From Candidatus Aenigmatarchaeota archaeon (GTDB lineage: Archaea; Aenigmatarchaeota; Aenigmatarchaeia; CG10238-14; SCSR01), in assembly GCA_039000165.1 (NCBI GenBank), contig JAWBTW010000003.1:21187-79355 (forward strand): a DNA stretch of 58,169 bases, written 5' to 3'. Numbering within the stretch: the stretch's first letter is position 1; each line of letters opens with the position of its first letter. Below are positions 13,977 through 48,568 of this stretch, one piece after another. The position numbers were made by a program, and so were the translations under genes. The notes under the pieces are model-generated. The model was not told where the DNA came from. It worked only from the letters and a program-made list of their open reading frames with translations, and ran no database searches.

Positions 13977-14101
13977 TAGCGGGGAGTGGATTTGAACCAC
14001 TGACCTTTCCCCCAGACTTAGTCTGTCCGGGTGTCGCATGAGCAGCCATTATGAGCCATTCGCAAAGCTTCGGCGAGCACTCCAGGCTGCTCTACCCCGC
14101 T
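13977..14101 (-). tRNA. Initiator tRNA-Met(CAU) with three introns (29/30, 37/38, 43/44)
   Basis: A1:U72 acceptor AGCGGGG/CCCCGCT. Removing 14058..14070, 14033..14049 and 14007..14026 yields a 75-nt tRNA with CCGGG-CT-CAT-AA-CCCGG (three G:C pairs, the initiator signature). Each junction has a BHB-like motif. Confidence 0.9.
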
Positions 14102-32404: not shown

Positions 32405-32443
32405 TATTTAAGCTTAGTATTAATAATTTTTATAGGTTACGCT

Positions 32444-32528
32444 GCCCCTGTAGTCTAGCCTGGACAGGATAGAAGCTTGCGGTAAGAGTGAAAAGCTTCT
32501 GGCCCGGGTTCGAATCCCGGCAGGGGCA
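32444..32528 (+). tRNA. tRNA-Arg(GCG) with 11-nt intron at 37/38 (32483..32493)
   Basis: GCCCCTG/CAGGGGC acceptor, GAAGC/GCTTC anticodon stem, TT-GCG-G|A loop; central helix UUGC/GUGA; spliced length 74 nt. Confidence 0.92.
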
Positions 32529-32570
32529 TTAAAAATTTAAAATACCAATTCCTAAAAATTGTTAGAGAAA

Positions 32571-32753
32571 ATGCCAAATTTAATTCTTATAATCATCTTA
32601 CTAATCCTAATTTTTCTTCTCTTCCTAAACTTAGACTGTATAATGGAAGGAATAAACAGAGAAAACAAAGCTTTTTGCTTTTACCAAGATTTTGGGTTGA
32701 ACAAAATAGGCGCAAAAACTATTCCTTTAAGCAAATGTGTTTGTTTCCCTTAA
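32571..32753 (+). CDS. Small membrane-anchored Cys-containing protein
   Basis: ATG 32571, strongly hydrophobic N-terminus, four Cys; downstream of tRNA-Arg. Confidence 0.5.
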   Translation: MPNLILIIILLILIFLLFLNLDCIMEGINRENKAFCFYQDFGLNKIGAKTIPLSKCVCFP

Positions 32754-33658
32754 TTTTTTAAAACAACCTTCATAAAATCATAAGCAACTTTCGTGTTTTC
32801 AAAAATCTTTTTTGCATTTTCTTCTAAATCTTTTACGTCAGTATACCTTCTACTTATGTGAGTTAAGATTAATTGTTTAACGTTTGCCTTTTTTGCTATT
32901 CTTGCTGCTTGTTTAACGTCAGCATGAGCTTTTCCACTTTCTTCCTCAAGAAAAGTTCCGTCATGAATTAGCAAATCAGCGTTTTCAGAAATTTTTACAA
33001 TATTATCGCAAGGTTTTGTATCACCTGTATAAACAACCTTTAAACCTTTCTTTAAATTTGCTACTTCTTCGATTCTAATCTCTTTTCCCTTATATTCTGC
33101 TTTCCCATATTTTTTAAGTTTCTTGAGCCAATAACCTCTTTTTAAACCAAGCTTTTTCATTTTTTCCAAATCAATACTCCATCTATCCTTTTCCTTAAAA
33201 GCATAAGCTACAGAAGGAATAGAATGAAAAGCTGGAATTGAAAAAATTTGATAATCTTCTGTTTCATCTATAAGAGTAACTTTTTCACCATGAAAAGGAA
33301 CGTTTATAGCAACAACAGGAAACCTACAACCAAAATAGCCTAAGCTTAAAATGTTTGCCACAAACTTTTCAGCTTCTGGGGCAAAAATTTTCAATTCTTT
33401 TTTTCTTTTTTCCAAGCTCATAGTTTGGAGCAAAGGAATTAAACCAGCAAAATGATCAGCATGCCAATGAGTTATGAAAATCTTATCTATTTTCATAAAG
33501 CTAATTCCAGCAAGCATTAATTGCTTTTGGGTTCCTTCACCGCAATCAAAAAGTAAAGTTTCTTTTTTCTTGCTATAGTACTCTAAAGCTATTGCTGGGT
33601 GGTTTCTTTCTTTGCTCGGTATACCAGAAACCGTGCCCAAAAAAGTTATTTCTATCAC
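32750..33658 (-). CDS. rnz: Ribonuclease Z
   Basis: FLGTVSGIPS..R, LFDCGEGTQ, THWHADH, YTGDT, LIHDGT, LTHISRRY. Confidence 0.97.
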   Translation of the reverse strand: MIEITFLGTVSGIPSKERNHPAIALEYYSKKKETLLFDCGEGTQKQLMLAGISFMKIDKIFITHWHADHFAGLIPLLQTMSLEKRKKELKIFAPEAEKFVANILSLGYFGCRFPVVAINVPFHGEKVTLIDETEDYQIFSIPAFHSIPSVAYAFKEKDRWSIDLEKMKKLGLKRGYWLKKLKKYGKAEYKGKEIRIEEVANLKKGLKVVYTGDTKPCDNIVKISENADLLIHDGTFLEEESGKAHADVKQAARIAKKANVKQLILTHISRRYTDVKDLEENAKKIFENTKVAYDFMKVVLKN

Positions 33659-33680
33659 AATCCTAATTATAGGAAAATCT

Positions 33681-35111
33681 TTATATTAGGCTTTCCTTTT
33701 CAAAGTATTTTCTCAAGAATATGCCAAAATTTTCATCTTTTTTAACAAGCTCCATTATCTTTTCATTCTCGTAAATTAGCTCAAAACCTTTTACTATTTG
33801 TTCAGCTATGTGATTTGGTATTCCTTTTGCTTTAAGCACTTCCAGATTCTTGCTTAGACTGTCAAAAATTTTCTCTCTTGCGGTGATGAATTTTCTTTTA
33901 ACTTCAACACACCAGAAATTGTCTTCTATAAAAGGTCCAGTAATTGCTTGAGTTTTATACTTTTCTAAAAACCTTTCAGAATCGTCCAAATCAAAAATTT
34001 TCGGTCCAATTCTTTTTTGAATTAAAGGCAGCTTGGAAACTTCCATCTCAAGTAGAACTACAGCCAAATCTTTTTCATTTGTATAAACATCCTTCCTTAA
34101 AACTTTAAACTCATACTTAACTTCTTCCAAGATACTTTGAATCCTTTCAGCAAATTTTCTTAGCTGAGGCCAAAGAATGTCAGGGACAACTTTTGGCGGT
34201 GAAAATTTAATAAGTATTATTTCCGTTCTTCTTTTCATTTGATAAACTATTAGTTCATTTTCAGTTATTGGCTCGATTTTTCTCTTAAAGAAAAGCTCTT
34301 CTCTCGGGTTTTCCAAGAATTCTTTAGCCAGTTTTTTAAACTTGAAGAAATTAGTAGAAGAGAGGGCAGCACAGGTATTTCTGTTTTTGTCTGTCGGGTC
34401 TATAAGAATTAAAGCTTGGTTTTTAAACATCCTTATAAGCTTAGGATAATCACTTTTCGAATAATAATTTTTTATTTGAATTATTTCACCTGGTTTCCAG
34501 TTTGCAGCCTTTTTCATGAGTTTAAGGAAACTCTTGTACTTTATTATAAGCAACTCACAAACATAACCAGAAAAACCTTCAGTTTTTGCATCAGCTCCAT
34601 ATATTTCGTTAGCCTCACAAAACTTCTTCAAAAGTCTTACTTCCTCTGCCATTTTTTTAGTTAAATTCTTTTCTATGAACCTAACATGGAAAGGAGTTCT
34701 GTCTACTGCGGACTTTATTTTTTCTGGACTTTCTACTTCATAACAAGGCACTATATCAACGCTTATTTCTTTAATTTTCCCTGAAACATAAGGATGTTGC
34801 GCATACTCTATTGTGTATTCTCCCTTCATCCTTTCTATAACTTTTTTTCCTATTTCTAGACCAAGCTTTTCGAGCTCTTTTTCTTTCAGTTCAGGAGGGA
34901 AAAGAATGAAAACGTCAAACTCTCTTTTTTCTGGAAGCCAAGTATCTCTTGTTATACTTCCTACAAGCATAGCTTTTGCCTTGTATTTTTTTGCTTCCTC
35001 GTTAGCAATTTTTAGAACACGCTGAGCTAAAGATTTCAGTCTTCTCTCTTCCTCTTTCTTTGGCTTTATTTTTTCAAGTACTTCTTTCAATACTTTTGCG
35101 TGCTTATCCAT
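33681..35111 (-). CDS. cca: CCA-adding enzyme, archaeal class I
   Basis: GSITRDTWL...EFD, YAQHPYV, VDIVPC, SAVDRTPFH, GFSGYVCELL, IDPTD..RN. Confidence 0.96.
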   Translation of the reverse strand: MDKHAKVLKEVLEKIKPKKEEERRLKSLAQRVLKIANEEAKKYKAKAMLVGSITRDTWLPEKREFDVFILFPPELKEKELEKLGLEIGKKVIERMKGEYTIEYAQHPYVSGKIKEISVDIVPCYEVESPEKIKSAVDRTPFHVRFIEKNLTKKMAEEVRLLKKFCEANEIYGADAKTEGFSGYVCELLIIKYKSFLKLMKKAANWKPGEIIQIKNYYSKSDYPKLIRMFKNQALILIDPTDKNRNTCAALSSTNFFKFKKLAKEFLENPREELFFKRKIEPITENELIVYQMKRRTEIILIKFSPPKVVPDILWPQLRKFAERIQSILEEVKYEFKVLRKDVYTNEKDLAVVLLEMEVSKLPLIQKRIGPKIFDLDDSERFLEKYKTQAITGPFIEDNFWCVEVKRKFITAREKIFDSLSKNLEVLKAKGIPNHIAEQIVKGFELIYENEKIMELVKKDENFGIFLRKYFEKESLI

Positions 35112-35115
35112 TCTT

Positions 35116-36087
35116 TCACTTTATTTCAAACTCTCTTTCGATGCATCTTACCTTTCCTGTTACTTCACATCCTCCGTACTGAAGGCCTCCTTTGTAAGAA
35201 GTATAATAACAAAACATTGCTTTGTACTTTCCTGGTTCTGCCATTTTTTCCTCGTTGCAATTCTTTGGGAATGTCCTATTTCCAGAAGTACAGTTTATTG
35301 TTTTTGGTTCATAAACTTTTTGGTTCCATACATAACTAAATACTCCAAGAGGTTTAATTTCTGAGCAAAGTTTAGCCTTTGCAGGGCATAATGGACAAGC
35401 TAAACAATCACAGGGGCATGGACAGTAAACTTTTATTTCTTGTTCTACCCATTCACCGTTTTTATACAAGTATAGAAACTTCTCGTCCCAGTCGTAAAAA
35501 TCTACGTAAATCGAAGAATTAAGGTTGTTTATTATCTTAAACTCAATATCTTCTCCCTGTTTATAAGATTCTTTAAGAAGGAAGTTCACCCCTGGCTCAA
35601 GCCCACAAACCTCTTCTATTTCTATTTCTTTGTCTCCAACTCGAACGTATGCGCATGAAAATTCACCTTTCTCTCCAACTAAACCAATTAAGTAATAAAC
35701 CTTGCAATGTGGTAAGTAAGCTTCACAACCTTCAGGCTCTTTTTTCCAAAGTTTTGAAGCTCTAAAAACTTCTACACTAGTGTTTGGCTTAATGTAATCC
35801 TCTATGCCGTCGCAACTTTTTTTAAGAGTATTGAACAAATTTTCATCTACAAAAAGAGATACTTTACTTATTTCTTCAAAGCTAGTTCCGCATTTTGCTA
35901 TTTTTTGATTTATAAGGTTGAGTGCTTCTTCATTTGTTATTTCAACAGGAAAAGGTTTTGGTGAATAGTACAAATAGTATAAAACTATTATTACTACAGT
36001 TAAAACCATTACTGGTATGACTAGGCTCTTCCAGCTTATTTCTTTCTTAACTCTTTTAGCTTCCTTTTCTCTTGCTTTTTTCGCCAT
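35116..36087 (-). CDS. Membrane-anchored extracellular protein with Cys cluster and Ig-like C-terminal domain
   Basis: Basic N-terminus + TM helix; CPCPCDCLACPLCP; YKQGEDIEFKIINN...SYVWNQ...PGKYKA Ig-like pattern. Confidence 0.78.
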   Translation of the reverse strand: MAKKAREKEAKRVKKEISWKSLVIPVMVLTVVIIVLYYLYYSPKPFPVEITNEEALNLINQKIAKCGTSFEEISKVSLFVDENLFNTLKKSCDGIEDYIKPNTSVEVFRASKLWKKEPEGCEAYLPHCKVYYLIGLVGEKGEFSCAYVRVGDKEIEIEEVCGLEPGVNFLLKESYKQGEDIEFKIINNLNSSIYVDFYDWDEKFLYLYKNGEWVEQEIKVYCPCPCDCLACPLCPAKAKLCSEIKPLGVFSYVWNQKVYEPKTINCTSGNRTFPKNCNEEKMAEPGKYKAMFCYYTSYKGGLQYGGCEVTGKVRCIEREFEIK

Positions 36088-36120
36088 AATTATTTTTTTC
36101 TTTTTTATAACTTAAATTTG

Positions 36121-36741
36121 CTAGTAAAAGAAAAGAAAGAAAATCAGAAAGATTAGTAAGGAAACCAAAAGGATTAAAGGAGAGGTTTGAGGATAAGGCA
36201 AAGAGAAAAAACCAGTAGTTGTACTCGAAACAAAGAAAGCCAAAAATCCTAGGAAAAATAAAGGAATAAGTTTTATAAACTCTTTAAAGCCAAACTTTTT
36301 CTCAATTTTAATTTCTTTTTTAGTAAGTAAAGATTCTAAGCAGCTCTGAAGCATTTTATAAACTTCTCTTCCATAGCCCACTTTTAACAACAAATCCTCC
36401 GCTGGGATTAAGCCTTTTTCAATATAAACCTTGAACCTGGAGTAAATTCCGTTTTTGTAAAGATTATACAAGAGTTTTCTTGCTTCTTCACTTAAGCTTA
36501 TTTCTATTTTTCTCCTGTAAGAATAATCCTTTTTTCCATAGCCCATAAGTTCAAAAGAAGTTTGGGGTAAGTATTCAAGAGTTAAATTGTTTGTCTCTTG
36601 TTTTAAAACAACTCTTTTTCTTTTTTCTAAAGGTAACTTTTCCCAATAAATTTCAAAAATCCTTCCTAAGCTCTTAGCAATTTCAGAAGTAAGGCTATTA
36701 TTTTGATACAAACTCTTGCTCAGATTTGAAAAAAAGCTCAT
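36121..36741 (-). CDS. Hypothetical protein with two C-terminal TM helices
   Basis: 206 aa; C-terminal helix-TTGFFS-helix hairpin. Confidence 0.72.
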   Translation of the reverse strand: MSFFSNLSKSLYQNNSLTSEIAKSLGRIFEIYWEKLPLEKRKRVVLKQETNNLTLEYLPQTSFELMGYGKKDYSYRRKIEISLSEEARKLLYNLYKNGIYSRFKVYIEKGLIPAEDLLLKVGYGREVYKMLQSCLESLLTKKEIKIEKKFGFKEFIKLIPLFFLGFLAFFVSSTTTGFFSLPYPQTSPLILLVSLLIFLIFFLFFY

Positions 36742-36773
36742 TATTTAATTTTTGTTTTTCCCTTACCTTAACT

Positions 36774-37010
36774 CTAACTCCTAGCTAAACATTTTTCCAT
36801 TTCTGCTATAACTTCAGAGTAAGGTTCCTTATCGTAACTTGTATAATTTTTCTTTAAGTAATTGTACACAACCAAAGCCTCCCATTTTGGAAGAGCTCGA
36901 AACTCTTTCAAAGCTTCTTCTATGCTAATCCCTCGGAAAATGCTGTAAGGACAAGGAAAATTACAACTCTTAAGCAATAATTCAAAAGTTTCGATTAAAA
37001 GTTGGTTCAT
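36774..37010 (-). CDS. Small hypothetical protein
   Basis: 78-aa ORF just downstream of elp3 on the same strand. Confidence 0.6.
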   Translation of the reverse strand: MNQLLIETFELLLKSCNFPCPYSIFRGISIEEALKEFRALPKWEALVVYNYLKKNYTSYDKEPYSEVIAEMEKCLARS

Positions 37011-37031
37011 ACTCTATTAATAGCAAAAAAA

Positions 37032-38591
37032 CTATAAAAGTTTTGAAACATAAGCTCCATCTTGTTTATAACCAAGTCTGTAGTAGTATTTTTTGACGCC
37101 TGCTCCACTAATAACAACAATTTTATTTTTATCAAACTCTTCCTTTGCAATTCTTTCTGCCTCTTCTAAAAGTCTTCTTCCAAAACCTTTGTGCTGAAAA
37201 GCTTCTTCTTTAAACTCTCCTACAGGAACCAAAGGCCCATAAACATGAAGCTCCCTTACTAGAGCAGTTTTTTCTGTTATTTCCTTTCTAAAAGGTTTGA
37301 ACGGAATCCTTAATCTAAGGAAAGCGATTAAAATATCATTTTTTATATCTTCAAAACTTAAGAAAACTTCTTCTCCCTGTGAAGCCTCATAATCAAGCCT
37401 ACAAAGCTTTATTTTATCAAAATCAATGCTCACACCTTTTTCAAGCTTATGACCAACTTCTCTGTATCTTATCTCTTTTATCTTTATTCCCAGTTCTTCT
37501 GCTCTTTTCTCGACAAATTCTCTTAGATTGCTTTTCTTAACTCCCGCAACTATATGAGTTGCAGGTATATCTCTTTGAACCCTTATTATTCTGCAATACT
37601 TTGGAATGTACTTCAAAGCTCTTGCTATTAGTTCTATTGCTTCCTTTTCTTCCAAAGGTTTATACTCACCTTTTTTCCACATTTCATAAAGTTTTGTTCC
37701 CTTAATCACAAGAGTAGGGTAAATTTTAAGTGAGTCTGGTCTAAAGTCAGGGTTTTCAAAAATTTCTTTAAATTGATTTAAATCTTCTTCAAAACTTGTA
37801 AACAGGCCTGGCATAACATGCCAAGTAATTTTTAAGCAAGAGTCTTTTGCTAGTTGCGTTGCTTTAATAACATCTTCTAAAGAATGAATTCTTTGCGCTT
37901 TCCTCAAAATTTCCGGATAAATAGACTGAACTCCAATTTCGACTCTTGTCGTAGCTAGTTTAAGCATTTGATTTATATGCTTCTCAAAACAAAAATCAGG
38001 TCTTGTTTCTATGGTTAAACCAGAACACCTTATTCTTCCTTCCTCGTTTAGTCTTATAGCTTCTTCTAAGCTTTTTGCCTCACTTCCGTTCAAAGCATCA
38101 AAAAGTCTTTTAACAAACCATTCTTGATATTCTTTTTCTAAAGCAAGAAAAGTTCCACCTATTATTATAAGCTCAACCTTATCGATGCTGTGACCCATTA
38201 AACGATACTGATTTATTCTACAATTCACCTGAAGAAAAGGATCATAATTATTCTGTATAGCCCTTTGAATCGCAGGTTCTAAACCAACGTAGCTTTGTGG
38301 TGCATTCTCACCTTTTGGGCAATAAATACATATACCAGGACATTTTGCAGGTTTAGGTACAACAGTGATAACTGAAACTCCAGAAATTGTTCTTCCTGGT
38401 TTCATAACTAAAAAATCCTTAAGCTTTTCCCTTTCTTCTTTTGTGCAAGCTTGAAGAATTTGAATGCTTGTTGGAATTTTCTTTGCATTATATTTTTTAC
38501 AAACTCTTTTAACTATTGACCAAGCTTTTTCTCTTGTAAGCTTTTCTTTTTTTAGTTCCTCGATTATCTCTCTTAGCAGTTTTTCTTCCAT
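37032..38591 (-). CDS. elp3: tRNA uridine(34) acetyltransferase Elp3 (radical SAM + KAT)
   Basis: RTISGVSVI, CPGICIYC (CxxxCxxC), IETRPD, LRLR, RELHVYG, QHKGFG. Confidence 0.97.
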   Translation of the reverse strand: MEEKLLREIIEELKKEKLTREKAWSIVKRVCKKYNAKKIPTSIQILQACTKEEREKLKDFLVMKPGRTISGVSVITVVPKPAKCPGICIYCPKGENAPQSYVGLEPAIQRAIQNNYDPFLQVNCRINQYRLMGHSIDKVELIIIGGTFLALEKEYQEWFVKRLFDALNGSEAKSLEEAIRLNEEGRIRCSGLTIETRPDFCFEKHINQMLKLATTRVEIGVQSIYPEILRKAQRIHSLEDVIKATQLAKDSCLKITWHVMPGLFTSFEEDLNQFKEIFENPDFRPDSLKIYPTLVIKGTKLYEMWKKGEYKPLEEKEAIELIARALKYIPKYCRIIRVQRDIPATHIVAGVKKSNLREFVEKRAEELGIKIKEIRYREVGHKLEKGVSIDFDKIKLCRLDYEASQGEEVFLSFEDIKNDILIAFLRLRIPFKPFRKEITEKTALVRELHVYGPLVPVGEFKEEAFQHKGFGRRLLEEAERIAKEEFDKNKIVVISGAGVKKYYYRLGYKQDGAYVSKLL

Positions 38592-38662
38592 AATTTCATG
38601 GTTATCAAGAGTTTATAAAAGCTTGATTTTCTAAGTTTTATTTAATCACTATTCTTTAGTAG

Positions 38663-38677
38663 CGAAATCTTTAAATA
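38663..38677 (+). promoter_or_regulatory. BRE-TATA promoter (CGAAA...TTTAAATA) for a probable leaderless gene at 38701
   Basis: The TATA box ends ~24 nt before ATG 38701. Confidence 0.55.
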
Positions 38678-38700
38678 GTATCACTTATAAATAGTAACAC

Positions 38701-38856
38701 ATGAAAAAAAATACAGAGGAAATAGCATTGATAGAAGAGCAGCTTTACGAAGCACAAATGGCTTTGTTTAAAGCAAAAACAGTGAGAGAAGCAAAGTTCT
38801 TGCAAAACAAAATAGAATACTTAAAGAAAAGAGCAAAAGAACTAGGAATAATTTAA
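38701..38856 (+). CDS. Small helical protein (51 aa, not in ORF track)
   Basis: MKKNTEEIALIEEQLYEAQMALFKAKTVREAKFLQNKIEYLKKRAKELGII; well-placed promoter upstream. Confidence 0.7.
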   Translation: MKKNTEEIALIEEQLYEAQMALFKAKTVREAKFLQNKIEYLKKRAKELGII

Positions 38857-38907
38857 AGTTTTAATTCTTGAGTCCGCTTACAATTTATAGAAACTAGAAA
38901 AATAATT

Positions 38908-40356
38908 TTAACTTTTTTCTGCTGTAACTTTTATTATACTTGGTGTCTCATACAGCATATCGCCAAACGCAATTTCAAACGGCTTGTAAAGCAACCAATC
39001 CCCTGTATGCCAATAAAAGTCCTCAATATAATAATGTGAAAACCTTCTTGCCAACTTACTAAGATATTTTTTATTTTCACCTAGCTTTTCTTCTAATTTT
39101 TCTAATACCTCATTTGCCCAGATAATATCATTTGGACTAACTTTTGTCATAAAATAGATTTTAATTACTTCGTTAACAACCCCTATTTTTTCTTCTGGAA
39201 CTATTGTTTGAATAGCTTTTTGTAAAATTGTTTGAGTATGTACAGGGTTGTCTTTGTAATTCTTTTTTATTATGTACTTAACACCATATTTGTCTACTTT
39301 CTTTTTATCTACTTTCTTTAAAGGCAAATTGTTTGCTGCACTTTTACAAACCTCTTCAACATAATCTATAACACTTCCTAATTTCCTGAGATTTTCTACA
39401 CTTTTAAGGTTTCTTAAAATTTGAAGGAAATCCGTATCAGCCTTACGAAACCCGACAACAGGCAAATAATTAATCAAAAACTCATAAAATTGGTATGTCT
39501 GTCTTTCCACTTTTTCTCTTAATAATTCCAAAGCTTTTATTTTAATTTCATCTAGATTTATACAAGTTTTAGGTTGAAAGAGTTTTACAAATCTAACGAA
39601 ACTTCTTGGTTTAGGACTGATTCTGTACAACACTTGTTGGAAAGATTCTTCTAAGAAAATTCCATAATCTTCGATAAGACTGCACCATTCCAAATAGGTA
39701 TATGTAGGAATTTCCCTAAAAGCTAGATAATCAATCTTTTCTGAAAAACTTTCCCATTCTTCTTTAGTTTTGTAAAAACTCCGAGGATGAATACCAAACT
39801 TAGGCCAAACATCATCAAACTCTTTCATTTTTAAATTTTCCGTATAAAAGGATGGTATATCCTCAGAAATTAGAACTACTTTTTTTCCTGAATCAACGAA
39901 GTTGAGTATTTCTTTTAAAAATTTCAAAAAATCCTCTGGGGTATACTCTCCTTTCGCTATTGCTTCACAAACGTAATGAATATCATCAACCACTATAACA
40001 TTTGACAAATCTAACAAATCCTTTGTATCACTTGAATATACCTTAAGCCTATCTTTCCATATTTCTGGTGCTGCTAGTTTTAATGGATTAAGAATCTGTC
40101 TTCCTAAACCTTCCTTAAATATGAACATAGTTGGTATTAGTTTTTCATTTTCTCTTACCACCTCACTTAAGCTTTTCATTACCTGAAATGTTTTACCGGA
40201 ACCCTTAGGTCCTAGCACAAACAAAGGTCTTTTTTCTTCTGAAAGAAAGTATTCTTTTAATCTTTCCTTGAAATGAAAGAGTGCTGATTCTAACTCATTA
40301 AGAGTCGCAAAATCTAAGTTTTCTGCTCTTTCCTCTATTAAAACCATAGACTTCAC
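38908..40356 (-). CDS. P-loop ATPase (AAA+/archaeal ATPase-like) with unknown C-terminal region
   Basis: LFVLGPKGSGKT Walker A; VIVVDDIH Walker B. Confidence 0.8.
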   Translation of the reverse strand: MKSMVLIEERAENLDFATLNELESALFHFKERLKEYFLSEEKRPLFVLGPKGSGKTFQVMKSLSEVVRENEKLIPTMFIFKEGLGRQILNPLKLAAPEIWKDRLKVYSSDTKDLLDLSNVIVVDDIHYVCEAIAKGEYTPEDFLKFLKEILNFVDSGKKVVLISEDIPSFYTENLKMKEFDDVWPKFGIHPRSFYKTKEEWESFSEKIDYLAFREIPTYTYLEWCSLIEDYGIFLEESFQQVLYRISPKPRSFVRFVKLFQPKTCINLDEIKIKALELLREKVERQTYQFYEFLINYLPVVGFRKADTDFLQILRNLKSVENLRKLGSVIDYVEEVCKSAANNLPLKKVDKKKVDKYGVKYIIKKNYKDNPVHTQTILQKAIQTIVPEEKIGVVNEVIKIYFMTKVSPNDIIWANEVLEKLEEKLGENKKYLSKLARRFSHYYIEDFYWHTGDWLLYKPFEIAFGDMLYETPSIIKVTAEKS

Positions 40357-40427
40357 TTTTAATTAGAATAGCAAAAAAATTAATTCCTTTGGTTTTTAGT
40401 TTATGCAATTAGTTAAACAAAGTAGTA

Positions 40428-40523
40428 TAGCCCCGAGCGGATTCGAACCGCTGTCACGAGGTTTCTCCCAGCGACCAGAGCCTTCTACCCTTTTCGTATG
40501 CTTGGCCGCTGCACCACGGGGCT
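40428..40523 (-). tRNA. tRNA-Gln(CUG) with two introns (29/30 and 37/38)
   Basis: AGCCCCG/CGGGGCT acceptor. Removing 40483..40493 (11 nt) and 40463..40474 (12 nt) gives CGAGG-CT-CTG-GA-CCTCG and a 73-nt tRNA. Central helices AUAC/GUAG (3 of 4 pairs) and CUCU/GGAG. Confidence 0.9.
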
Positions 40524-40614
40524 ATATGTAATAATTAAGGGGACAAAATTAAAAATGTGACATTTGGAAAAATATTTTAACTTATTCTTTTTAAAAATAT
40601 TTTAAGTGAAAAGG

Positions 40615-40894
40615 ATGAAAGGTGAATTAGAAACAAATCGTAATTTCTTCTTATTCTGACTTGTTTAAATCTTCTTCTCTAGTTAGCTACTTACACTTTA
40701 GAAAATTCTTGAGCAAGAGAATGTTAGAATTTATCCTTAAAAACTGTAAAAACATAAAAATTATTTCAATGTCAAAGTATGCTTATAAGAGATGCGACAA
40801 AAAAATTATAGAATTAATAGAAAAGCGAGGTATAAAATTAATTGTTAGACAAAACTTAGGAAGACCAAGCATAATAGAGAGGCGAATGAAATGA
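40615..40894 (+). CDS. DUF1699-like small protein with interrupted 5' end (frameshift or in-frame TAG)
   Basis: KQIVISS...YLHFRKF...FILKNCKNIKII.MSKYAY...GIKL resembles DUF1699 as I recall it. The frame is open from 40631 with no ATG before the conserved first strand. Confidence 0.5.
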
Positions 40895-42747
40895 GAATCT
40901 TACAATTGCATGCAGATTTCATAGAATATGAACCGATAAAAAAAGAAATTGCCCAAGCAGAAGATGCCGAAAAGAAAAAATACAAGTTTGAAGAAATTCT
41001 AGTCTTATTAACTTGTGTAGAAGAAGGAGATAACCAGGAAGTTGCAAGAGAAGCTATAGAAGAAACAAAAGAATTTCTCCAAAAATTAAAGTTAAACAGG
41101 ATTTTGATCTATCCTTTTGCTCATTTAAGCTCAGACATCGCAAAACCTACCGAAGCCCTAAAGATAATAAAGGAAATGGAAAGTTATGCAAAAAAAATTG
41201 GAATAGAAACTTTCAGGGCCCCTTTTGGTTGGAACAAAGCTTTGCAAATAAAAGTTAAAGGCCATCCGTTAGCTGAGCAGTCAAGGCACATAACAGCAAA
41301 GAAAAAAGAGGAAAAAGTTTCCGAAGCAGTAAAAGCAGAAGAAAAAATTAAATCTTTTTGGTTCATCCTTTTGCCTGACGGAAAACTAGTAGAAGTGGAA
41401 AAGTTTGATTTTTCGAAACATCCTAACCTTAAAAAATTTGCAGATTATGAGATAAGCAAAGTTAGAGCAGTTCAACAAGTTCCTCCTCATGTTACCTTAA
41501 TGAAAAAACTAGAAATAGCAGATTATGAAGAAGGTTCAGACCCAGGAAACCTAAGATGGTATCCGAAGGGAAGATTAATTAAATCTTTACTTGAAAATTT
41601 TGTTACTCAAAAAGTCTTAGAGTATGGAGGAATGGAAGTCGAAACTCCAATAATGTATGACTTTAACCATCCTGCTCTAGCAAATTATTTAAACAGATTT
41701 CCTGCAAGGCAGTATGTGGTTAAATCTGAAGATAAAGAGCTTTTCCTTAGGTTTTCAGCATGCTTTGGCCAGTTTTTAATGAGTAAGGACGCTCAAATTT
41801 CTTACAAAAACTTGCCTTTTAGGATATACGAGCTTACAAGATACAGCTTCAGAAGAGAAAAAAGTGGGGAAGTTGTTGGGCTTAAAAGATTAAGAGCGTT
41901 TACTATGCCAGACGTCCATGCATTTTGTGAAGACATAGAACAAGCTAAGGAAGAATTTATAACCAGGTTTAAACTTTGTATGGAAGTTCTGAGGGAGATA
42001 GGCTTAGAAAAGGAAGATTATGAGCTTGCTATAAGGTTTACCAAGGATTTTTATGAGAAAAATAAGAATTTTATAGTTTCCTTAGTCAAGCAGTTTGGTA
42101 AGCCTGCGTTGGTTGAGATGTGGAACGAAAGGTTTTTCTACTTTGTTTTGAAATGGGAATTCAACTTTGTCGATAACTTGAACAAAGCTGCAGCTCTCTC
42201 TACGGATCAAATTGATGTTGAAAACGCTGAAAGATATGGAATAACTTATATTGACAAAAAAGGCAAGAAAAGGTATCCAATAATACTTCATTGCTCGCCT
42301 AGTGGAGCGATAGAAAGATGTATTTATGCTCTTTTAGAAAAAGCTTATTCAGACCAACAGAAAGGAAAGGTCCCAAAAATTCCATTATGGCTCTCTCCCA
42401 CACAAGTAAGGCTTGTTCCTGTTTCGAACAAATTCTTAAGTTTTGCGGAAAAAGTAGCTGAAAGTTTAGAAAAAAATTGCATAAGGGTTGATATAGATGA
42501 TAGAGAAGAAACTGTAAATAAAAAAATAAGAGAAGCTGAGATTGAATGGGTTCCCTTTATCTGCGTTTTAGGTGAAAAAGAAGTCAAGAATAATATTTTG
42601 GCAGTTAGAATAAGGGAGAAAAAAGAAGTTAAAGAAATGAAAATAGAAGAATTGATAGAAATGATTAAAGAAGAAGTGAAAGGGAAGCCTTTCAAGACTC
42701 TTTCTTTACCAAAGTATTTGTCGAGGCGTGCTATTTTTGTTAGCTAA
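40891..42747 (+). CDS. thrS: Threonyl-tRNA synthetase (archaeal type with N-terminal editing domain)
   Basis: MRILQLHADFIEY, YPFAHLSS, LRFSACFG, RLRAFTMPDVH, ILHCSPSGAIER. Confidence 0.97.
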   Translation: MRILQLHADFIEYEPIKKEIAQAEDAEKKKYKFEEILVLLTCVEEGDNQEVAREAIEETKEFLQKLKLNRILIYPFAHLSSDIAKPTEALKIIKEMESYAKKIGIETFRAPFGWNKALQIKVKGHPLAEQSRHITAKKKEEKVSEAVKAEEKIKSFWFILLPDGKLVEVEKFDFSKHPNLKKFADYEISKVRAVQQVPPHVTLMKKLEIADYEEGSDPGNLRWYPKGRLIKSLLENFVTQKVLEYGGMEVETPIMYDFNHPALANYLNRFPARQYVVKSEDKELFLRFSACFGQFLMSKDAQISYKNLPFRIYELTRYSFRREKSGEVVGLKRLRAFTMPDVHAFCEDIEQAKEEFITRFKLCMEVLREIGLEKEDYELAIRFTKDFYEKNKNFIVSLVKQFGKPALVEMWNERFFYFVLKWEFNFVDNLNKAAALSTDQIDVENAERYGITYIDKKGKKRYPIILHCSPSGAIERCIYALLEKAYSDQQKGKVPKIPLWLSPTQVRLVPVSNKFLSFAEKVAESLEKNCIRVDIDDREETVNKKIREAEIEWVPFICVLGEKEVKNNILAVRIREKKEVKEMKIEELIEMIKEEVKGKPFKTLSLPKYLSRRAIFVS

Positions 42748-43558
42748 CAGCTTTTGAATGACTCCAAACTAGGTTGAACAAAGGCTCAAGCACTTGGCTT
42801 GCTGCATGCTCACTTTTGCTCCAAACAACCAAATCTTGAGTTGAGTGTACACTTTTAGGGTCAGTTAAACCAAAAATTAACTGACTTCCGTCTACAACTG
42901 CAAACCTTCCGCTTATTGGCACTTCTTTTTCGTTAGCAACCCTTATTTCTGCTAGGCTGCTCAAAGCTTTTATCGCATCAGAGCATCTTTCACTGCTACT
43001 TGTTACTATCTTGATTTCCACTCCTTTTTCTTTTGCCTTTTTCAGGGCTTCAAAATGGTTTGAAAATAAATCGTTTAAGCCTTCTGGAGTAGTTACTATG
43101 TTAATCTTTTGAGTTGCGTTTCTTATCATTGAATCAAGCTGCTGAAAGACAGAAAACTTTCCTTTTAAAGTTCCTGTAACTTCTTCAGGAGAAATAACTT
43201 TTAACCCTTGAGAATAAATGTCCATAAGCTCTCTCATTACTGGCGACTCCTTAAGCGTGTTTATCCTTTCTACCATGGCCTTAAAATCTTCCTCTAGCTT
43301 TTTCTTTGCTCTTTCTAGAGCTTCGTCGGGAGAAACTGCCACATAGCGAATAGGCTTTCCTGTTTGAACGACAACAAAACCCTTTTCTGCTAGGCTTTGA
43401 AGAACATCATAGGCTCTGCTTCTTGGCACTCCAGCAATCTCAGAGAGCTCGCCTGCTGTTGAATTCCCCCTTGCTAAAAGAGCTATCCAAAGTTTTCTTT
43501 CATACAAATTTAGTCCTATACCTTTCAAAGCATCTAAAACTTTTGTTGAGGCTATCAT
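42740..43558 (-). CDS. TrmB-family regulator (TrmBL2-like)
   Basis: GLNLYERKLWIALL...EIAGVPRSRAYDVL.SL..KGFV wHTH, coiled coil, then PLD-like domain (RFAVVDG). Confidence 0.93.
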   Translation of the reverse strand: MIASTKVLDALKGIGLNLYERKLWIALLARGNSTAGELSEIAGVPRSRAYDVLQSLAEKGFVVVQTGKPIRYVAVSPDEALERAKKKLEEDFKAMVERINTLKESPVMRELMDIYSQGLKVISPEEVTGTLKGKFSVFQQLDSMIRNATQKINIVTTPEGLNDLFSNHFEALKKAKEKGVEIKIVTSSSERCSDAIKALSSLAEIRVANEKEVPISGRFAVVDGSQLIFGLTDPKSVHSTQDLVVWSKSEHAASQVLEPLFNLVWSHSKAVS

Positions 43559-43639
43559 TTTCTCCCTTGTTACTATGTAGTGATTTAATTTATAAATTAT
43601 TAAATTTAACTATTGTTGGTGTAGATAATTTTAAATACT

Positions 43640-45346
43640 TTAGCCCCTTAATCCTTGAGATTTGTAAAGCTCTATTAATCTATCTATGGTGTCAGCTTCT
43701 TCAGGACCTTTATCCTCCCTTATCCTTACCAAACGAGGAAATCTTAGGGCATAGCCTGAAGAGTAATTTGGCGATTTTTGAATTTCTTGAAAAGCCACTT
43801 CTACAACAATCTTTGGTCTTATTCTTACCTCCCTTCCCTTTTCTTCAACTATCAAATCTTTTAAAGTATCTGTCATTAGTTGAAATTGTTCTTCTGTCAA
43901 ACCTGTGCCCATCATACCGCAAGGTAAAAATTCCCCTGTATCAGGGTCTCTACAAGCTAAAACATAAGAACTTAACCATTTTGCTCTTAGGCCTTCGCCA
44001 TAAGTTGCACCAACTATTACTAAATCTAGAGTTTCCATTATTGGTTTAATCTTATACATAGTTCCCACATGCCTTCCAAAGACATAAGGAGAATCTAAAA
44101 CTTTAAGCATCAGACCTTCTTGCTTTGCGTTCAAAGCCTCTTGATAAAATTCTTCTGCTTCCTTTAAATCAGAAGTAACTATCTGCTTTGCAAGCTCAAC
44201 TTTCCCAGGAATAACTTTAACTATTTTTTCTAAGATTTTTCTCCTCTCTTTAAAAGTTTTTTCAAAAAGTTGTTTTCCCTCAAGATAAACTACATCAAAC
44301 AAATGGATTTGAACAGGAATTTCTTTTATCATTTTTTCTATCTCATACTTTCTATGAATTCTTTGAGAAAGAACTTGAAAAGGTGAGGGTAAACCAGTTT
44401 TTGGATTAACTGCTAAAGCTTCGCCTTCAACTATACATTCATCCGGCTTTAAAGCTTCTCTCAAGTATTGAACCAAATCTGGAAATTGTTTTGTGACTTC
44501 CTCTTCTCTTCTAGTAAAAAGCCAAATTTTATCTCCTTGTTTATGAACTTGCATTCTTGCTCCGTCATACTTATATTCTGCTGCTATTTTTTTGAATTCG
44601 TCCAAGACTTCCTTTATACTTTCAGCTTTTTCACCAAGCATTACTTGTATAGGTCTACCAAGTTTTACTTTCACGCTTTTTAACCCTTCTACACCTTTTT
44701 CCTTAGCTATTCTTGCAACCTCACCAAAATCTGAAACGATGTTCCAAGCATACTCCACAGCTTCCGTCAATTTTTCTTTTTCTTCTTTGTCCATTCCTTT
44801 TCGAAAAAGAAAAGCATCAACTATAGCATCTCTTATTATTCCTTCAGCAACTCCTATTCTTAACTCTTGAAGAATCGTTCTTACTATATACCTTGCTTCT
44901 TCCGGTTTTGCTGAAGCAAGAAGCTCTGCTATTATTTTTAACTTTTTTTCCTGCGAACCTTTACCAGTAACTACAGCCAATTCTTGTAAATTTTTAAAGA
45001 CAAAATCTACTGTCAGTTTTTTCGTAAAAAGTGTAACTTGTTTTTTCATTTTAACGCATTGTTCGGCTGCAAGTCCTAAATCTCCTGTTTCTTTAAACTT
45101 TTCTTCCACAACCTCAGGCTTAATTCCAGTTGCTTTTGATATTGCCTTTATCATCATTTGAGTTGCAATTCCCAGCTCCAAGCCAGTATACTTAGGATAA
45201 ACTAACCCTTGAACAAGTAAAACTACTTTTTCCAGGTCTTGTGTTGGAGTTTGAGAAAAGAGTTTCGCAAGTATTTCAGTCTTTTTTAATTTTGCTGAAA
45301 CAGCTTCTAATTCTTTGTAAACTTCAACTAGTGTAGAGTAATCCAT
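43640..45346 (-). CDS. lig: ATP-dependent DNA ligase
   Basis: Motif I EYKYDGAR, EGEA, LFDV, EGLMLK, KIKP, ALRFPR...R.DK. Confidence 0.97.
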   Translation of the reverse strand: MDYSTLVEVYKELEAVSAKLKKTEILAKLFSQTPTQDLEKVVLLVQGLVYPKYTGLELGIATQMMIKAISKATGIKPEVVEEKFKETGDLGLAAEQCVKMKKQVTLFTKKLTVDFVFKNLQELAVVTGKGSQEKKLKIIAELLASAKPEEARYIVRTILQELRIGVAEGIIRDAIVDAFLFRKGMDKEEKEKLTEAVEYAWNIVSDFGEVARIAKEKGVEGLKSVKVKLGRPIQVMLGEKAESIKEVLDEFKKIAAEYKYDGARMQVHKQGDKIWLFTRREEEVTKQFPDLVQYLREALKPDECIVEGEALAVNPKTGLPSPFQVLSQRIHRKYEIEKMIKEIPVQIHLFDVVYLEGKQLFEKTFKERRKILEKIVKVIPGKVELAKQIVTSDLKEAEEFYQEALNAKQEGLMLKVLDSPYVFGRHVGTMYKIKPIMETLDLVIVGATYGEGLRAKWLSSYVLACRDPDTGEFLPCGMMGTGLTEEQFQLMTDTLKDLIVEEKGREVRIRPKIVVEVAFQEIQKSPNYSSGYALRFPRLVRIREDKGPEEADTIDRLIELYKSQGLRG

Positions 45347-45385
45347 AACATTAAATTATTGTAAGTTTAAATATTTTATGGAAAA

Positions 45386-45550
45386 ATGGCGGGCTATACT
45401 TGGACGTTCGGCTTTTGCGAAACTTGTTTAAAAAATTCGCACGAGAAAGTGAAACTTGTTAGAAGAAGAATTATTTCTGGGGATTTGGAAGGTAAATGTT
45501 CAAGAGAATTTTGGGTTTGTCCTATTTGTGGAGCAACCAAAAGGTTATGA
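45386..45550 (+). CDS. Small zinc-ribbon protein (54 aa, not in ORF track)
   Basis: MAGYTWTFGFCETCLKNSHEKVKLVRRRIISGDLEGKCSREFWVCPICGATKRL has CxxC and CPxCG knuckles; divergent from lig. Confidence 0.75.
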   Translation: MAGYTWTFGFCETCLKNSHEKVKLVRRRIISGDLEGKCSREFWVCPICGATKRL

Positions 45551-45717
45551 TTAAGAATTATCCCTAATAAACTCTATGCCTTTTGAAAGGTAAGGATTCC
45601 TTCTTTTGGATGAAAACTGTATAAAATCTTATAAACCTTAGTTCCAAAAATTTGAAACTTACAAAATTCTTTAACCTAAAAGCTTTAATGGTTAAAATAA
45701 AAATTTAATTAGAGAAA

Positions 45718-46371
45718 ATGAACGTCTTTGAGGCAATCTTCGGAAGAAGAAGTATAAGAAGTTTTAAGAAAGAAGAGATTGACGATAGACTTATTGGTTT
45801 AATGCTTTATTGTGCAACCCAAGCACCTTCAGCCGGAAACACTCAAGACTGGGTTTTTATAGTTGTGAAAGATGAAAAAGTAAAAAGAAAGTTAGCAAAA
45901 GCTGCTTTAGACCAAGACTTCATAGCAGAAGCTCCTGTAGTTATAGTTGCTTGCTCGGACTTGAAAAAGATAAGCTTAAGGTATGAAGAAAGGGGTGAAA
46001 GACTTTATTCCATTCAAGATGTTGCTGCAGCCATTCAAAATATACTATTAGCTGCTTATGCCTTAGGCTTGGGTTCTTGTTGGGTTGGTGCTTTCGACGA
46101 GGAAGAGGTTAAGTTCATTTTAGAGTTACCAGAGCATATAAGACCTTTGGCAATAATTCCTGTTGGTTATCCAGAAGAAAAACCAGAAGCTCCGTCAAGA
46201 ATTCCTTTTGAAAACCTTACCTATTTAGACAGGTTTGGCGGAAAGTATCAAATCGAGTTTAAACCTTTAGAAACCTATTTGAGAGAAGCTTTAAAAAAGA
46301 TTAAAACTATGGAAAAGAAACCAACTAAAAGAATTAGTTTTGAAGAATTCATCAAAAGATTAGTTAAATAA
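45718..46371 (+). CDS. Nitroreductase-family protein
   Basis: RRSIRSF, APSAGNTQDW.F, QNILLAAYALGLGSCWVGAF, IIPVGYP. Confidence 0.95.
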   Translation: MNVFEAIFGRRSIRSFKKEEIDDRLIGLMLYCATQAPSAGNTQDWVFIVVKDEKVKRKLAKAALDQDFIAEAPVVIVACSDLKKISLRYEERGERLYSIQDVAAAIQNILLAAYALGLGSCWVGAFDEEEVKFILELPEHIRPLAIIPVGYPEEKPEAPSRIPFENLTYLDRFGGKYQIEFKPLETYLREALKKIKTMEKKPTKRISFEEFIKRLVK

Positions 46372-46405
46372 ATATTAAATTCAAAAATATATTAAGGTTG
46401 AGTAG

Positions 46406-47830
46406 ATGAAAAAGTTAATTTTCTTTTTCATTCTTGGAATAGTTTTGTTAGCTGAACCGGTTTTTGCCCAAGATGTAGAACTTTATCTTGAAACTTCCCA
46501 ACTAAAAATATACGCAGGAAAATCTGGCTCCGTAGAAGTGAATGTTTTTAACAACCAAAATTTTACTGATACTTTTTCCATAACAATATGGCCTACTCAG
46601 TTTGCCGATGTTATAACAACTGTAGAAAACCCAAACTTAAGAATAAACGCAAAAAGCAATGCTAGCACAAAAATTTATTTTTTTGCTTCTGAATGCGCAG
46701 ACGAATCCACGATTCAATTTGAAATTACAGCAAGTTCTACGACAAGCAATGCATCGAAATCAAAAAACCTCTTGCTTAGTGTTTTAAGAACTTTCATAGT
46801 TTGTATTTCAGATTTTAAACTTGACAAGTATGGTGAAATTGAACCCAACGAATCTCTTAAAATAACAACATACCTTACAAACCCTACTTATAAGATTTCA
46901 CCTCAATTTTTTGTTCAGACTAACATCAAACTTGAAAACAAAACTATAGAAAGTTTTGACGAGACTGTTCAACCCATGTCACAAAAGTCGACGAAAATTT
47001 TAAGTTTAACCTATAATTTTAGCGAATACGCAAGCCCAGGAATCTACAGGATAGAAGTTTTACTTAAGGATGAACTTAACAACCTAGTAACAAAGAAAGA
47101 AGAAACAATTAGAATGAAAATAGTGAACAAAACTTCTACCCAAAGCTGGACTGACATAGGAATTCTTTCTGCAGTAACAACAGTAAAAATAAAGAATGAA
47201 GGAAATGTAGTAGTTCCTATAAAAATAACAACCTCTATTCCAAGTTTTGTTAAAAACCTTTTCTTCCCAGAAATTCAACCTACCCGTGAAAAAACACAAG
47301 ATGGTTGGATAGAATACGTGTGGGAATTTGAGAACGTTAAGCCAGGAGAAGAAGTTATAGTAAGGTATGAAATAAAGCTTCTTTATGTTTGGCTTTTCTC
47401 CTTGGGTATAGTAATTGTAGTAATTCTTGCTTTTAAGTTTGTTTATGGCCCTACTGTTGTCAAAAAATATAAGCCAATAGTTCCAACTTTGGGAAAGGAA
47501 ATTACTATCGCTCTAGAAATTAAAAATAAAAGCAAGCATGAAATAGAAGATGTTGAAGTTAGGGATTTTGTTCCTACATTGTTCGAGGTTAGTGAAAAGT
47601 TCGATACTGTTAGACCAGACTCAGTCAAAAAAGTTAAAGGTGGGACCATAATAACCTGGAAGTTTAACTCGCTTAAACCCCTAGAAGAAAGAGTTTTAAC
47701 TTATAAGATTAAACCAAAAATGGAAATAAGTGGAACTTTCAAGCTACCAAACGCTTATATGAAGTACTTGGACAAGAAAAAAGAAGTTAAAAGTATAGTT
47801 TCCAAATCTATTTTACTTAAAGCAGAATAA
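46406..47830 (+). CDS. Single-pass membrane protein with Ig-like domains on both sides of the membrane
   Basis: Signal peptide, several Ig-like segments, TM (LYVWLFSLGIVIVVILAF), then a DUF11-like domain (ITIALEIKN...VEVRDFVP...WKF..L). Confidence 0.8.
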   Translation: MKKLIFFFILGIVLLAEPVFAQDVELYLETSQLKIYAGKSGSVEVNVFNNQNFTDTFSITIWPTQFADVITTVENPNLRINAKSNASTKIYFFASECADESTIQFEITASSTTSNASKSKNLLLSVLRTFIVCISDFKLDKYGEIEPNESLKITTYLTNPTYKISPQFFVQTNIKLENKTIESFDETVQPMSQKSTKILSLTYNFSEYASPGIYRIEVLLKDELNNLVTKKEETIRMKIVNKTSTQSWTDIGILSAVTTVKIKNEGNVVVPIKITTSIPSFVKNLFFPEIQPTREKTQDGWIEYVWEFENVKPGEEVIVRYEIKLLYVWLFSLGIVIVVILAFKFVYGPTVVKKYKPIVPTLGKEITIALEIKNKSKHEIEDVEVRDFVPTLFEVSEKFDTVRPDSVKKVKGGTIITWKFNSLKPLEERVLTYKIKPKMEISGTFKLPNAYMKYLDKKKEVKSIVSKSILLKAE

Positions 47831-47864
47831 AATTTAAAAAACCTTGCTACAATTTTTATTATAG

Positions 47865-47978
47865 CCCCGCTTAGCTCAATGGTAGAGCGACCGGCTGTAG
47901 GCGAGCGCTTTGGCGCTTGCTAGTAGCTATCGCTCGGTCAATACCGGTAGGTTGGGAGTTCAAGTCTCCCAGCGGGGA
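47865..47978 (+). tRNA. tRNA-Tyr(GUA) with 42-nt intron at 37/38 (47901..47942)
   Basis: C1:G72 acceptor CCCCGCT/AGCGGGG, ACCGG/CCGGT stem, CT-GTA-G|A loop; spliced length 72 nt. The junction motif is non-canonical. Confidence 0.88.
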
Positions 47979-48048
47979 CTATTATTTTTAGGCTATAAAA
48001 ACCAAAAACTTTAAAAGTTTTTAAATTCCAAATATCATAAATATATTC

Positions 48049-48164
48049 GTTGGCGGCCAAAGCGGGGAGGAAACATCTGTTCCCGTTCCGAACACAGTAA
48101 TTAAGCTCCCCAGCGATCTGGGTTGTACTTTCCGAAAGGAAGGGAACTCCAGGACGCCGCCAAC
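48049..48164 (+). rRNA. rrf: 5S rRNA (stand-alone, not with 16S/23S)
   Basis: Terminal helix GTTGGCGGC/GCCGCCAAC, CCCGTTCCGAACACAG..TTAAGC core, TTCC-GAAA-GGAA loop; 116 nt. Confidence 0.95.
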
Positions 48165-48239
48165 AATTTAAATTGGTGTCTGTATTAAAGAAAAAACAGA
48201 GAATGATGACTTTTCCTTAGAATTCCATGAAATAAGGAT

Positions 48240-48325
48240 GCCTCGGTGGTGTAGGGGCCTAATGGATAGGCTAAGCATACGAGCCTGTCACGCTCGTGAC
48301 ACGGGTTCAAATCCCGTCCGAGGCG
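48240..48325 (+). tRNA. tRNA-Asp(GUC) with 13-nt D-arm intron at 21/22 (48262..48274)
   Basis: GCCTCGG/CCGAGGC acceptor, G73, CGAGC-CT-GTC-AC-GCTCG arm. The 22-nt D-loop resolves via BHB (GGCC/GGCU helix, UA|A and AA|G bulges). Spliced length 73 nt. Confidence 0.9.
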
Positions 48326-48337
48326 TTTGGTGAAATT

Positions 48338-48568
48338 ATGGAAATAGAGAGCCATAGACTCGTACCGAAACATATTTTGTTAAGTGAAAAAGAAAAAGAA
48401 GAACTTTTGAAAAAATACGGAATAACACTTAAGGAATTACCAAGAATTTTATCTTCAGACCCGATGGTAAAAGCTTTAAACGCCAAAGTTGGTGATGTTA
48501 TAAAAATAATAAGGAAAAGCCCGACCGCTGAGGTAAGTGAATATTATAGGGTAGTTGTAAAGGGGTGA
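48338..48568 (+). CDS. rpo5: RNA polymerase subunit Rpo5 (H)
   Basis: [11 protein letters not shown]...LPRILSSDP...[12 protein letters not shown]. True start ATG 48338 after SD GGTGA; the track extension runs through tRNA-Asp. Confidence 0.96.

Follow-up and report, generated by a model that had tools for sequence, protein, structure and literature searches.

The tRNA-Gln(CUG) gene of this hot-spring Aenigmatarchaeota (DPANN) archaeon is 96 nt long and lies on the minus strand, running from 40523 to 40428 of the window (the whole 58,169-nt stretch of DNA that was analysed). It starts with the acceptor strand, ends with the complement of that strand followed by A73, and is interrupted twice. 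The features of the locus are as follows.

40428..40523, minus strand: tRNA-Gln(CUG) gene, positions 1-73 with two introns and no encoded CCA (Rfam RF00005, cloverleaf parse, ARAGORN on the spliced form)
40494..40523, minus strand: exon 1, tRNA positions 1-29 (acceptor 5' strand, D arm, C27 G28 A29)
40483..40493, minus strand: intron 1, AAAGGGTAGAA, 11 nt, site 29/30
40475..40482, minus strand: exon 2, positions 30-37 (G30 G31 C32 U33 C34 U35 G36 G37), with the anticodon CUG inside
40463..40474, minus strand: intron 2, TCGCTGGGAGAA, 12 nt, canonical site 37/38
40428..40462, minus strand: exon 3, positions 38-73 (anticodon-stem 3' strand, 4-nt variable loop, T arm, acceptor 3' strand, A73)
40546..40555, minus strand: putative A/T-rich TATA-like box, TTTTTAATTT, 23-32 nt upstream of position 1, placed by eye only

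The gene is absent from the list produced by an Rfam gathering-threshold run over the whole window. In a local E-value run it scores 40 bits against the Rfam tRNA model RF00005, with a 34-nt unaligned insert in the anticodon arm. On the unspliced gene ARAGORN calls Ser-AGA or Phe-GAA, and we rejected both calls as products of forcing a single intron. In our own cloverleaf search, which allowed up to three inserts at any place, the only mismatch-free stem solutions take 11 nt out after position 29 and 12 nt out of the anticodon loop, and a score of 60 with 0 mismatches is reached solely on removal of both inserts. ARAGORN identifies the doubly spliced 73-mer as tRNA-Gln(ctg). The spliced product has a standard 7-nt loop (CUCUGGA) with U33 and a purine at 37. 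Its A1:U72 pair, typical of archaeal tRNA-Gln, and its A73 are common to the UUG isoacceptor, and the exons of the two Gln genes are identical save positions 34 and 38. No other CUG gene is present in the 783-kb assembly (33% G+C, 92% complete).

Splice junctions were placed by scoring bulge-helix-bulge (BHB) motifs, with the cut after the second letter of a 3-nt bulge and a 4-bp helix between bulges. Intron 2 was set at 37/38, where all four pairs of the central helix form (at most three in neighbouring registers); the other registers from 33/34 to 39/40 were rejected on motif score. Register 28/29 for intron 1 is sequence-equivalent to 29/30 and was also rejected on motif score (2 pairs versus 3). 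With boundaries drawn from structure and comparison, the locus is confirmed as a real tRNA-Gln(CUG) gene with two mini-introns, and the 11-nt insert at 29/30 reported in the first-pass annotation stands. Two other tRNA genes of the window also escape the standard tools: the initiator tRNA (13977-14101, minus strand) is missed by ARAGORN and by the Rfam gathering threshold, and ARAGORN takes tRNA-Asp (48239-48326, plus strand; with an insert in its D-loop) for Ala.

Letters 6 to 8 of intron 1 (i6-i8) pair with C27, A26 and U25 (C27:G, A26:U, U25:A), and i9 (G) lies opposite A24, giving a central helix of three pairs and an A24.G mismatch. The 3' splice site is within a 3-nt bulge of i10, i11 and G30 (A-A-G30) and the 5' splice site within a 7-nt hairpin loop, an arrangement of the bulge-helix-loop type. 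We know of no citable, experimentally tested substrate with a central helix as weak as this one. The strict hBHBh' form (two 3-nt bulges, a 4-bp helix between them and flanking helices of at least 2 bp on each side) does not describe this motif, as there is one bulge only, three base pairs plus A.G, and a 5' site in the loop. The structure has instead the relaxed BHL or hBH form, in which one intact 3-nt bulge lies between the outer and central helices and the other splice site is in a loop (PMC5829648).

The outer helix of this motif has three contiguous pairs, and up to 12 if one bulged C is allowed. Its exon-exon part consists of C23-G31, G22-C32 and A21-U33, then bulged C34, then A20b-U35, C20a-G36 and C20-G37. 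The helix continues with six D-loop letters paired to the first six nt of the 37/38 intron, which are complementary to D-loop positions 13-19. Its two strands are:

40500..40511, minus strand: outer helix 5' strand, tRNA positions 13-23 (D-loop and part of the D-stem 3' strand), in the MFE and centroid folds
40469..40481, minus strand: outer helix 3' strand, G31 C32 U33 (C34 bulged) U35 G36 G37 and the first six letters of intron 2 (i1'-i6'), letters that the 37/38 motif also needs

The 29/30 motif is present in the primary transcript's MFE fold and in its centroid fold (-40.7 kcal/mol, z = -1.96). It had been proposed that the helix is built from nucleotides 24-27, in the same register as in the initiator tRNA, and flanked by the outer pairs G22-C32 and C23-G31. 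The register is the same, although 25-27 pair and A24 does not; the two outer pairs are present, as part of a set of six exon-exon pairs with up to six more involving intron 2. The exon-exon part of the outer helix is found in every tRNA-Gln of the order, which may be the reason that tRNA-Gln is a permissive host.

The mismatch has counterparts elsewhere. Among 40 distinct introns (the 29/30 introns of this genome and its relatives), the letter facing position 24 is G in 20, and it is then opposite A24 or G24; such introns occur in Gln-CUG, Pro-CGG, Gly-GCC and Val-GAC genes (L171-L175, L195-L197, L216). Thus, a mismatch of two purines beside the 3' bulge is recurrent and conserved, and is no accident of the Gln-CUG gene.

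The 37/38 intron forms a more regular structure. Letters i7'-i10' pair with U35, C34, U33 and C32 to give a 4-bp central helix with one G.U, and the bulges are G36 G37 i1' and i11' i12' A38. Only one C:G pair makes up the inner helix, and this keeps the motif from the strict hBHBh' form in spite of its helix and both bulges; it is a nearly canonical motif in relaxed form. Its outer helix is the anticodon stem. When intron 1 is present, this stem is reduced to G31:C39 and G30:C40, supplemented by the chance pairing of U41 with the A that ends intron 1.

Comparison with relatives bears on both motifs. The introns are at the same sites in all seven gene copies of the genus and in two other genera (G054, G047). 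Across these nine orthologues the exons are nearly invariant and the intron letters vary. A compensatory change occurs in G054, where the central-helix pair 25:i8 has gone from U25:A to C25:G. In the alignment of the nine, 94% of cells in the outer helix are paired (22-46% in slid controls). One outer-helix pair, between position 16 and i3', shows covariation on both sides: it is U:A in four sequences, C:G in three, U:G in one and mismatched in one. As the nine sequences are related and 16 of 500 shuffles reach the observed covariation, the support that it lends to the outer helix is modest.

The complementarity between intron 2 and the D-loop is complete (6 of 6) in the Gln-CUG gene described here, in two other members of the genus and in the two other genera with both mini-introns. 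Three more copies from the genus have 4-5 of the 6 pairs, the second copy of G064 has two contiguous pairs only, and Gln genes lacking a 29/30 intron have about 3 of 6 on average. A metagenome scan gave 101 pattern matches, of which 94 were attributed to chance and seven were added as genes. D-loop pairing is 6 of 6 in one of the seven and 4 of 6 in two, and three of them have a 29/30 intron without any 37/38 intron. Those three genes, together with the genus copy that has two contiguous pairs, led us to drop the idea that the 29/30 motif requires the 37/38 intron. Intron 2 can reinforce the motif of intron 1, yet it is not required. Some Gln(CUG) genes are more heavily interrupted. In G010 the 29/30 intron is 25 nt long (L011:1501-1613, plus strand), forms a full hBHBh' motif with a 7-bp inner helix, and reads like two tandem mini-intron units, each ending in a helix strand and AA. 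An extra D-stem intron of about 19 nt at 10/11 occurs in other Gln(CUG) genes, with or without a 37/38 intron (L007:1501-1616, minus strand, in G047; L077, L082, L122). The introns of G047 at 10/11, 29/30 and 37/38 were read by eye, as the three-intron search did not resolve them.

The two motifs of the Gln-CUG gene overlap. The first-pass annotation had them competing for C32; they do, but the contested stretch is longer and extends from G31 to G37 plus i1'. Formation of the 29/30 helix uses up the 5' strand and 5' bulge on which the 37/38 motif depends, and the D stem is opened as well. Thus, the motifs exclude each other by geometry and cannot coexist. For the primary transcript at 37 C, the predicted pairing probability of the 29/30 motif is 0.6 for the central helix and 0.95 for the outer helix, and that of the 37/38 motif is about 0. 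Most orthologues behave alike at 37 and 70 C (0.6-0.96 for the 29/30 motif), with the 37/38 motif at about 0 in all nine. When intron 2 is removed in silico from the gene described here, the 29/30 central helix is still predicted (0.89) and the outer helix no longer is. When intron 1 is removed, the long D-loop helix is still favoured over the cloverleaf and the 37/38 motif has a probability below 0.1. The folding model is therefore a weak guide to order. Four metatranscriptome runs from the same study place essentially no reads on window positions 32000-48400, even on the 5S rRNA, and so provide no test.

Removal of one intron before the next motif can form is an established idea for Thermoproteales (PMC8450103). 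From the predicted folds, ordered splicing of the two Gln-CUG introns is plausible, and the chance that the 29/30 intron would be cut first is a little over one half. The alternative that splicing is unordered, with two real introns, a precursor that exchanges folds, cutting of whichever motif is presented and productive intermediates of either kind, we regard as possible but rather improbable. Neither motif needs the other intron to be gone before it can form (the unspliced transcript still allows the 37/38 motif four central-helix pairs and three outer-helix pairs), the 29/30 central helix outlives the removal of intron 2 in the predictions, and there are genes with a 29/30 intron and no 37/38 intron, all of which would suit a process without fixed order. 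This alternative is harder to reconcile with the near-zero probability of the 37/38 motif in the primary transcripts of all nine orthologues, most of which present the 29/30 motif, or with the loss of the 29/30 outer helix from the prediction once intron 2 is gone. Far less credible is a decaying tRNA pseudogene from which the inserts are not removed. The weak 29/30 motif, with three pairs and a mismatch, and the low Rfam score would be in keeping with decay, but this is the only CUG gene of the genome, its exons have stayed nearly invariant beside changing introns, compensatory changes keep the motif, and the paralogous Gln-UUG gene has the same architecture.

We infer that both introns of a functional gene are actually cut, and in a preferred order. 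Cleavage would fall to the single alpha-type EndA, and ligation of the exons to RtcB. The 29/30 intron would be cut first, from an alternative fold in which the D-loop and the 3' strand of the D-stem are paired to G31-G37 and the start of intron 2; the anticodon stem would then close, and the 37/38 intron would be cut from a cloverleaf-like fold.

The genome encodes the enzymes for these steps, and the set (EndA and RtcB) is as the literature predicts. EndA is encoded by one gene (188 aa; L031:1474-2040, minus strand; G000:C4) with Pfam domains PF02778 and PF01974, and exactly one EndA gene is present in 64 of the 70 genomes of the family. RtcB is present (549 bits). The closest public EndA records are from hot-spring MAGs named Candidatus Aenigmatarchaeota. 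The closest solved relative, matched over its full length, is the alpha4 homotetramer of M. jannaschii, relative to which the protein has a basic six-residue insertion just before the catalytic His, aligned to the loop of the N. equitans alpha subunit. The insertion fits the published position of the L3 loop (PMC5829648), and it is by position only that it would be identified as L3. In DPANN archaea, L3-bearing alpha4 EndAs have been associated with large numbers of disrupted tRNA genes (Kaneta et al., 2018, PMC5829648), and relaxed BHL/hBH substrates have been described for the epsilon2 EndA of ARMAN-2 (Fujishima et al., 2011, PMC3239211). The EndA described here resembles the L3-loop alpha4 enzymes of DPANN in being a single gene, in having a basic insertion that may correspond to L3 and in the load of relaxed introns in its genome (PMC5829648; PMC3239211), and it is predicted to act on BHL motifs. 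The enzyme is nearest to the strict M. jannaschii alpha4 type, yet relaxed, non-canonical introns abound in the tRNA genes; judged from its sequence, the basic insertion before the catalytic His is an obvious candidate for the cause of a broadened specificity.

The 29/30 site is the commonest non-canonical intron site in this genome. Introns of 11-13 nt occupy it in six tRNA genes (Gln-CUG, Gln-UUG, iMet, Pro-CGG, Gly-GCC and Thr-GGU), and Asn-GUU has an intron at 30/31. Across the family, introns of 10-13 nt are present at 29/30 in at least seven or eight tRNA species, and their presence is specific to lineages. The catalogue of such introns in the genome and its relatives that had been proposed as a check now covers 70 genomes from 27 genera of the family, and the occupancy is patchy:

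iMet: 29/30 intron in six genera; absent or different in four genomes
Thr-GGU: four genera
Gln-CUG: own genus; G047; G010 (25-nt version with the full BHB); one of four genomes of genus g24
Gln-UUG: own genus; one genome of g16
Pro-CGG: own genus; two g24 genomes (two other g24 genomes have a 37/38 intron instead)
Gly-GCC: own genus only
Val-GAC: G053 only, as a clean 11-nt insertion (L216:1411-1492, plus strand); the same exons are uninterrupted in three congeners and in this genome

The Val-GAC case is a presence/absence polymorphism of a tRNA intron within a genus. The direction of change (gain or loss) was assigned by parsimony at the level of genera, by which the patchiness of Gly-GCC, Val-GAC and Gln-CUG corresponds to recent gain, as in a transposed intron family. 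The Pro-CGG gene with a 29/30 intron is 98% identical between the own genus (L171) and G058 of g24 (L174), a likeness that reflects either gene transfer between genera or a mis-binned contig; the g24 loci L202 (G054) and L204 (G057) hold a different Pro-CGG gene, with a 37/38 intron. Longer introns show a likeness of their own. The 37/38 introns of 31-35 nt in five tRNA genes of this genome (G000) share a module of YTGA, a few A and AGATGA (Gln-UUG, C9:15028-15146; Trp, C4:46764-46873; Cys, C13:14411-14514; Met-CAU, C8:10369-10476; Leu-CAA, C9:26832-26949). The module is kept in Gln-UUG orthologues of other genera and, at the level of its letters, looks like a box D'/C' K-loop.

The gene with which the Gln-CUG intron had been compared is in the same window:

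14058..14070, minus strand: 29/30 intron of iMet, 13 nt, in the three-intron initiator gene (14101-13977), with 4 of 4 central-helix pairs and an outer helix of 2 pairs

The two genes are alike in the site, the register and the overlap of the 29/30 motif with the 37/38 motif. The iMet motif has a fully paired central helix and a short outer helix, whereas the Gln-CUG motif combines three pairs and A.G with a longer outer helix, and the iMet intron is old (six genera) whereas that of Gln-CUG is patchy. A special pairing of Gln-CUG with iMet does not hold up, given that Gln-UUG, Pro-CGG, Gly-GCC and Thr-GGU have the intron as well. The fourth central pair, replaced by the mismatch in Gln-CUG, is present in iMet and in Gln-UUG. 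By sequence, the closest relative of the Gln-CUG intron is that of the paralogous Gln-UUG gene, which is outside the window, and not that of iMet. As the Gln exons are near-identical and the UUG gene keeps all 4 bp of the central helix, the most fitting view of the Gln-CUG intron is that of a sibling of the Gln-UUG intron which has decayed slightly.

The earlier expectation that intron sequences differ as pairing with each exon requires is borne out. It is only the helix-forming letters that differ, following host positions 25-27, and A-R-N-U-U-A is common to the unpaired parts in different tRNA species. Measured as edit distance, the nearest intron of another tRNA is on average 1.40 away, compared with 1.85 +/- 0.095 in letter shuffles, none of which (0 of 2,000) is as low. 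Also found are individual cases of close likeness. The Thr-GGU intron of G002 and the Gly-GCC intron of this genome are the same 12-mer (12 of 12). In G064 the Gly-GCC and Gln-UUG introns are identical at 10 of 12 letters, and the two that differ are those paired to positions 25 and 26 of the host. Deleting one A from the Pro-CGG intron of a congener gives the Gln-CUG intron of G054. The Val-GAC intron of G053 bears the GCGG helix strand typical of Gly and Thr introns, and in its own host this strand forms a wobble and a mismatch. Similar introns thus occupy one site in different tRNAs, the pattern on which transposed families have been recognised (Fujishima 2010) and one that copying with later co-adaptation would predict. 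The first-pass annotation had suggested spread followed by co-adaptation, or repeated gain at a favoured site; six occupied genes here, at least seven or eight tRNA species in the family and the motif shared by the free parts support it.

Some of this likeness could arise without copying. The A-R-N-U-U-A motif could be a structural requirement rather than a mark of common descent. On this alternative reading the 29/30 introns would have independent origins, through local duplication or slippage at a permissive site, and would resemble each other through the demands of the endonuclease. The shared part is indeed A/T-rich and no longer than 5-7 nt, the 37/38 introns of this genome likewise finish with AA, and the free part diverges fast among orthologues of one tRNA. 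Independent origin does not readily explain the 12-mer identity between Thr-GGU and Gly-GCC, nor the pair of introns in G064 of which both differences are compensatory, nor the Val-GAC intron of G053, in which a strand of Gly/Thr type fits its own host badly, as a copy not yet adapted would. We consider such an origin possible but rather improbable. A stronger version of the copying view can be held only tentatively. It would make the 29/30 introns a mobile family that copies between tRNA genes wherever positions 22-27 and 31-33 allow docking and is retuned by two or three substitutions; the 37/38 intron of Gln-CUG would have been recruited into the 29/30 helix, tying the two into one cooperative unit with obligatory order, and Val-GAC would be a snapshot of transposition before adaptation.

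Position 29/30 is presumably already among the intron positions listed for Thermoproteales. The introns described here are at the short end of the range seen in that order (10-13 nt), and the host differs: it is a DPANN archaeon with a genome of less than 1 Mb and a single alpha-type EndA rather than an (alpha-beta)2 enzyme. In addition, the recognition helix of the first Gln-CUG intron seems to be extended, and not merely blocked, by the second. Multi-intron tRNA genes of Thermoproteales are reported to have two to three short BHB-type introns per gene, many of them non-canonical (Sugahara et al., 2007, 2008, as summarised in PMC4033280 and PMC8450103), and Gln-CUG is like them in having several short BHB-type introns and non-canonical sites. 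The same order is reported to have transposed intron families, with similar introns at the same position of different tRNAs and a patchy distribution, interpreted as gain at the DNA level (Fujishima et al., 2010, as summarised in PMC4090602 and PMC4033280). The 29/30 family matches this picture in its same-site likeness across tRNAs and its patchiness among close relatives. It differs in its site and its lineage, and it includes one clean within-genus case (Val-GAC, G053); the shared part is about 6 nt only, so homology is less secure than in the Thermoproteales families. To our knowledge, published evidence for tRNA intron transposition comes from one crenarchaeal order. The kind of intron and the existence of spreading families were known already, and what is added is the 29/30 catalogue, the within-genus gain in Val-GAC and the long helix that ties the two Gln introns together.

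In summary, we consider it probable that this is a functional gene with two mini-introns, spliced along a path that begins at 29/30, and that its 29/30 intron belongs to a lineage-specific family. The family, with introns of 10-13 nt, would have colonised position 29/30 at various times in no fewer than seven or eight tRNA species, with only three or four helix letters retuned to each host; copying as the means of this spread we infer from the introns themselves. Automatic tRNA sets are unreliable in this lineage, and the tRNA sets of DPANN genomes look incomplete because standard tRNA finders mis-assign or miss such genes. Very small introns at a fixed site, with few and readable host-fitting letters and clean presence or absence among close genomes, make the mechanism of intron gain testable, and likewise the minimal substrate of an alpha-type, L3-bearing EndA.
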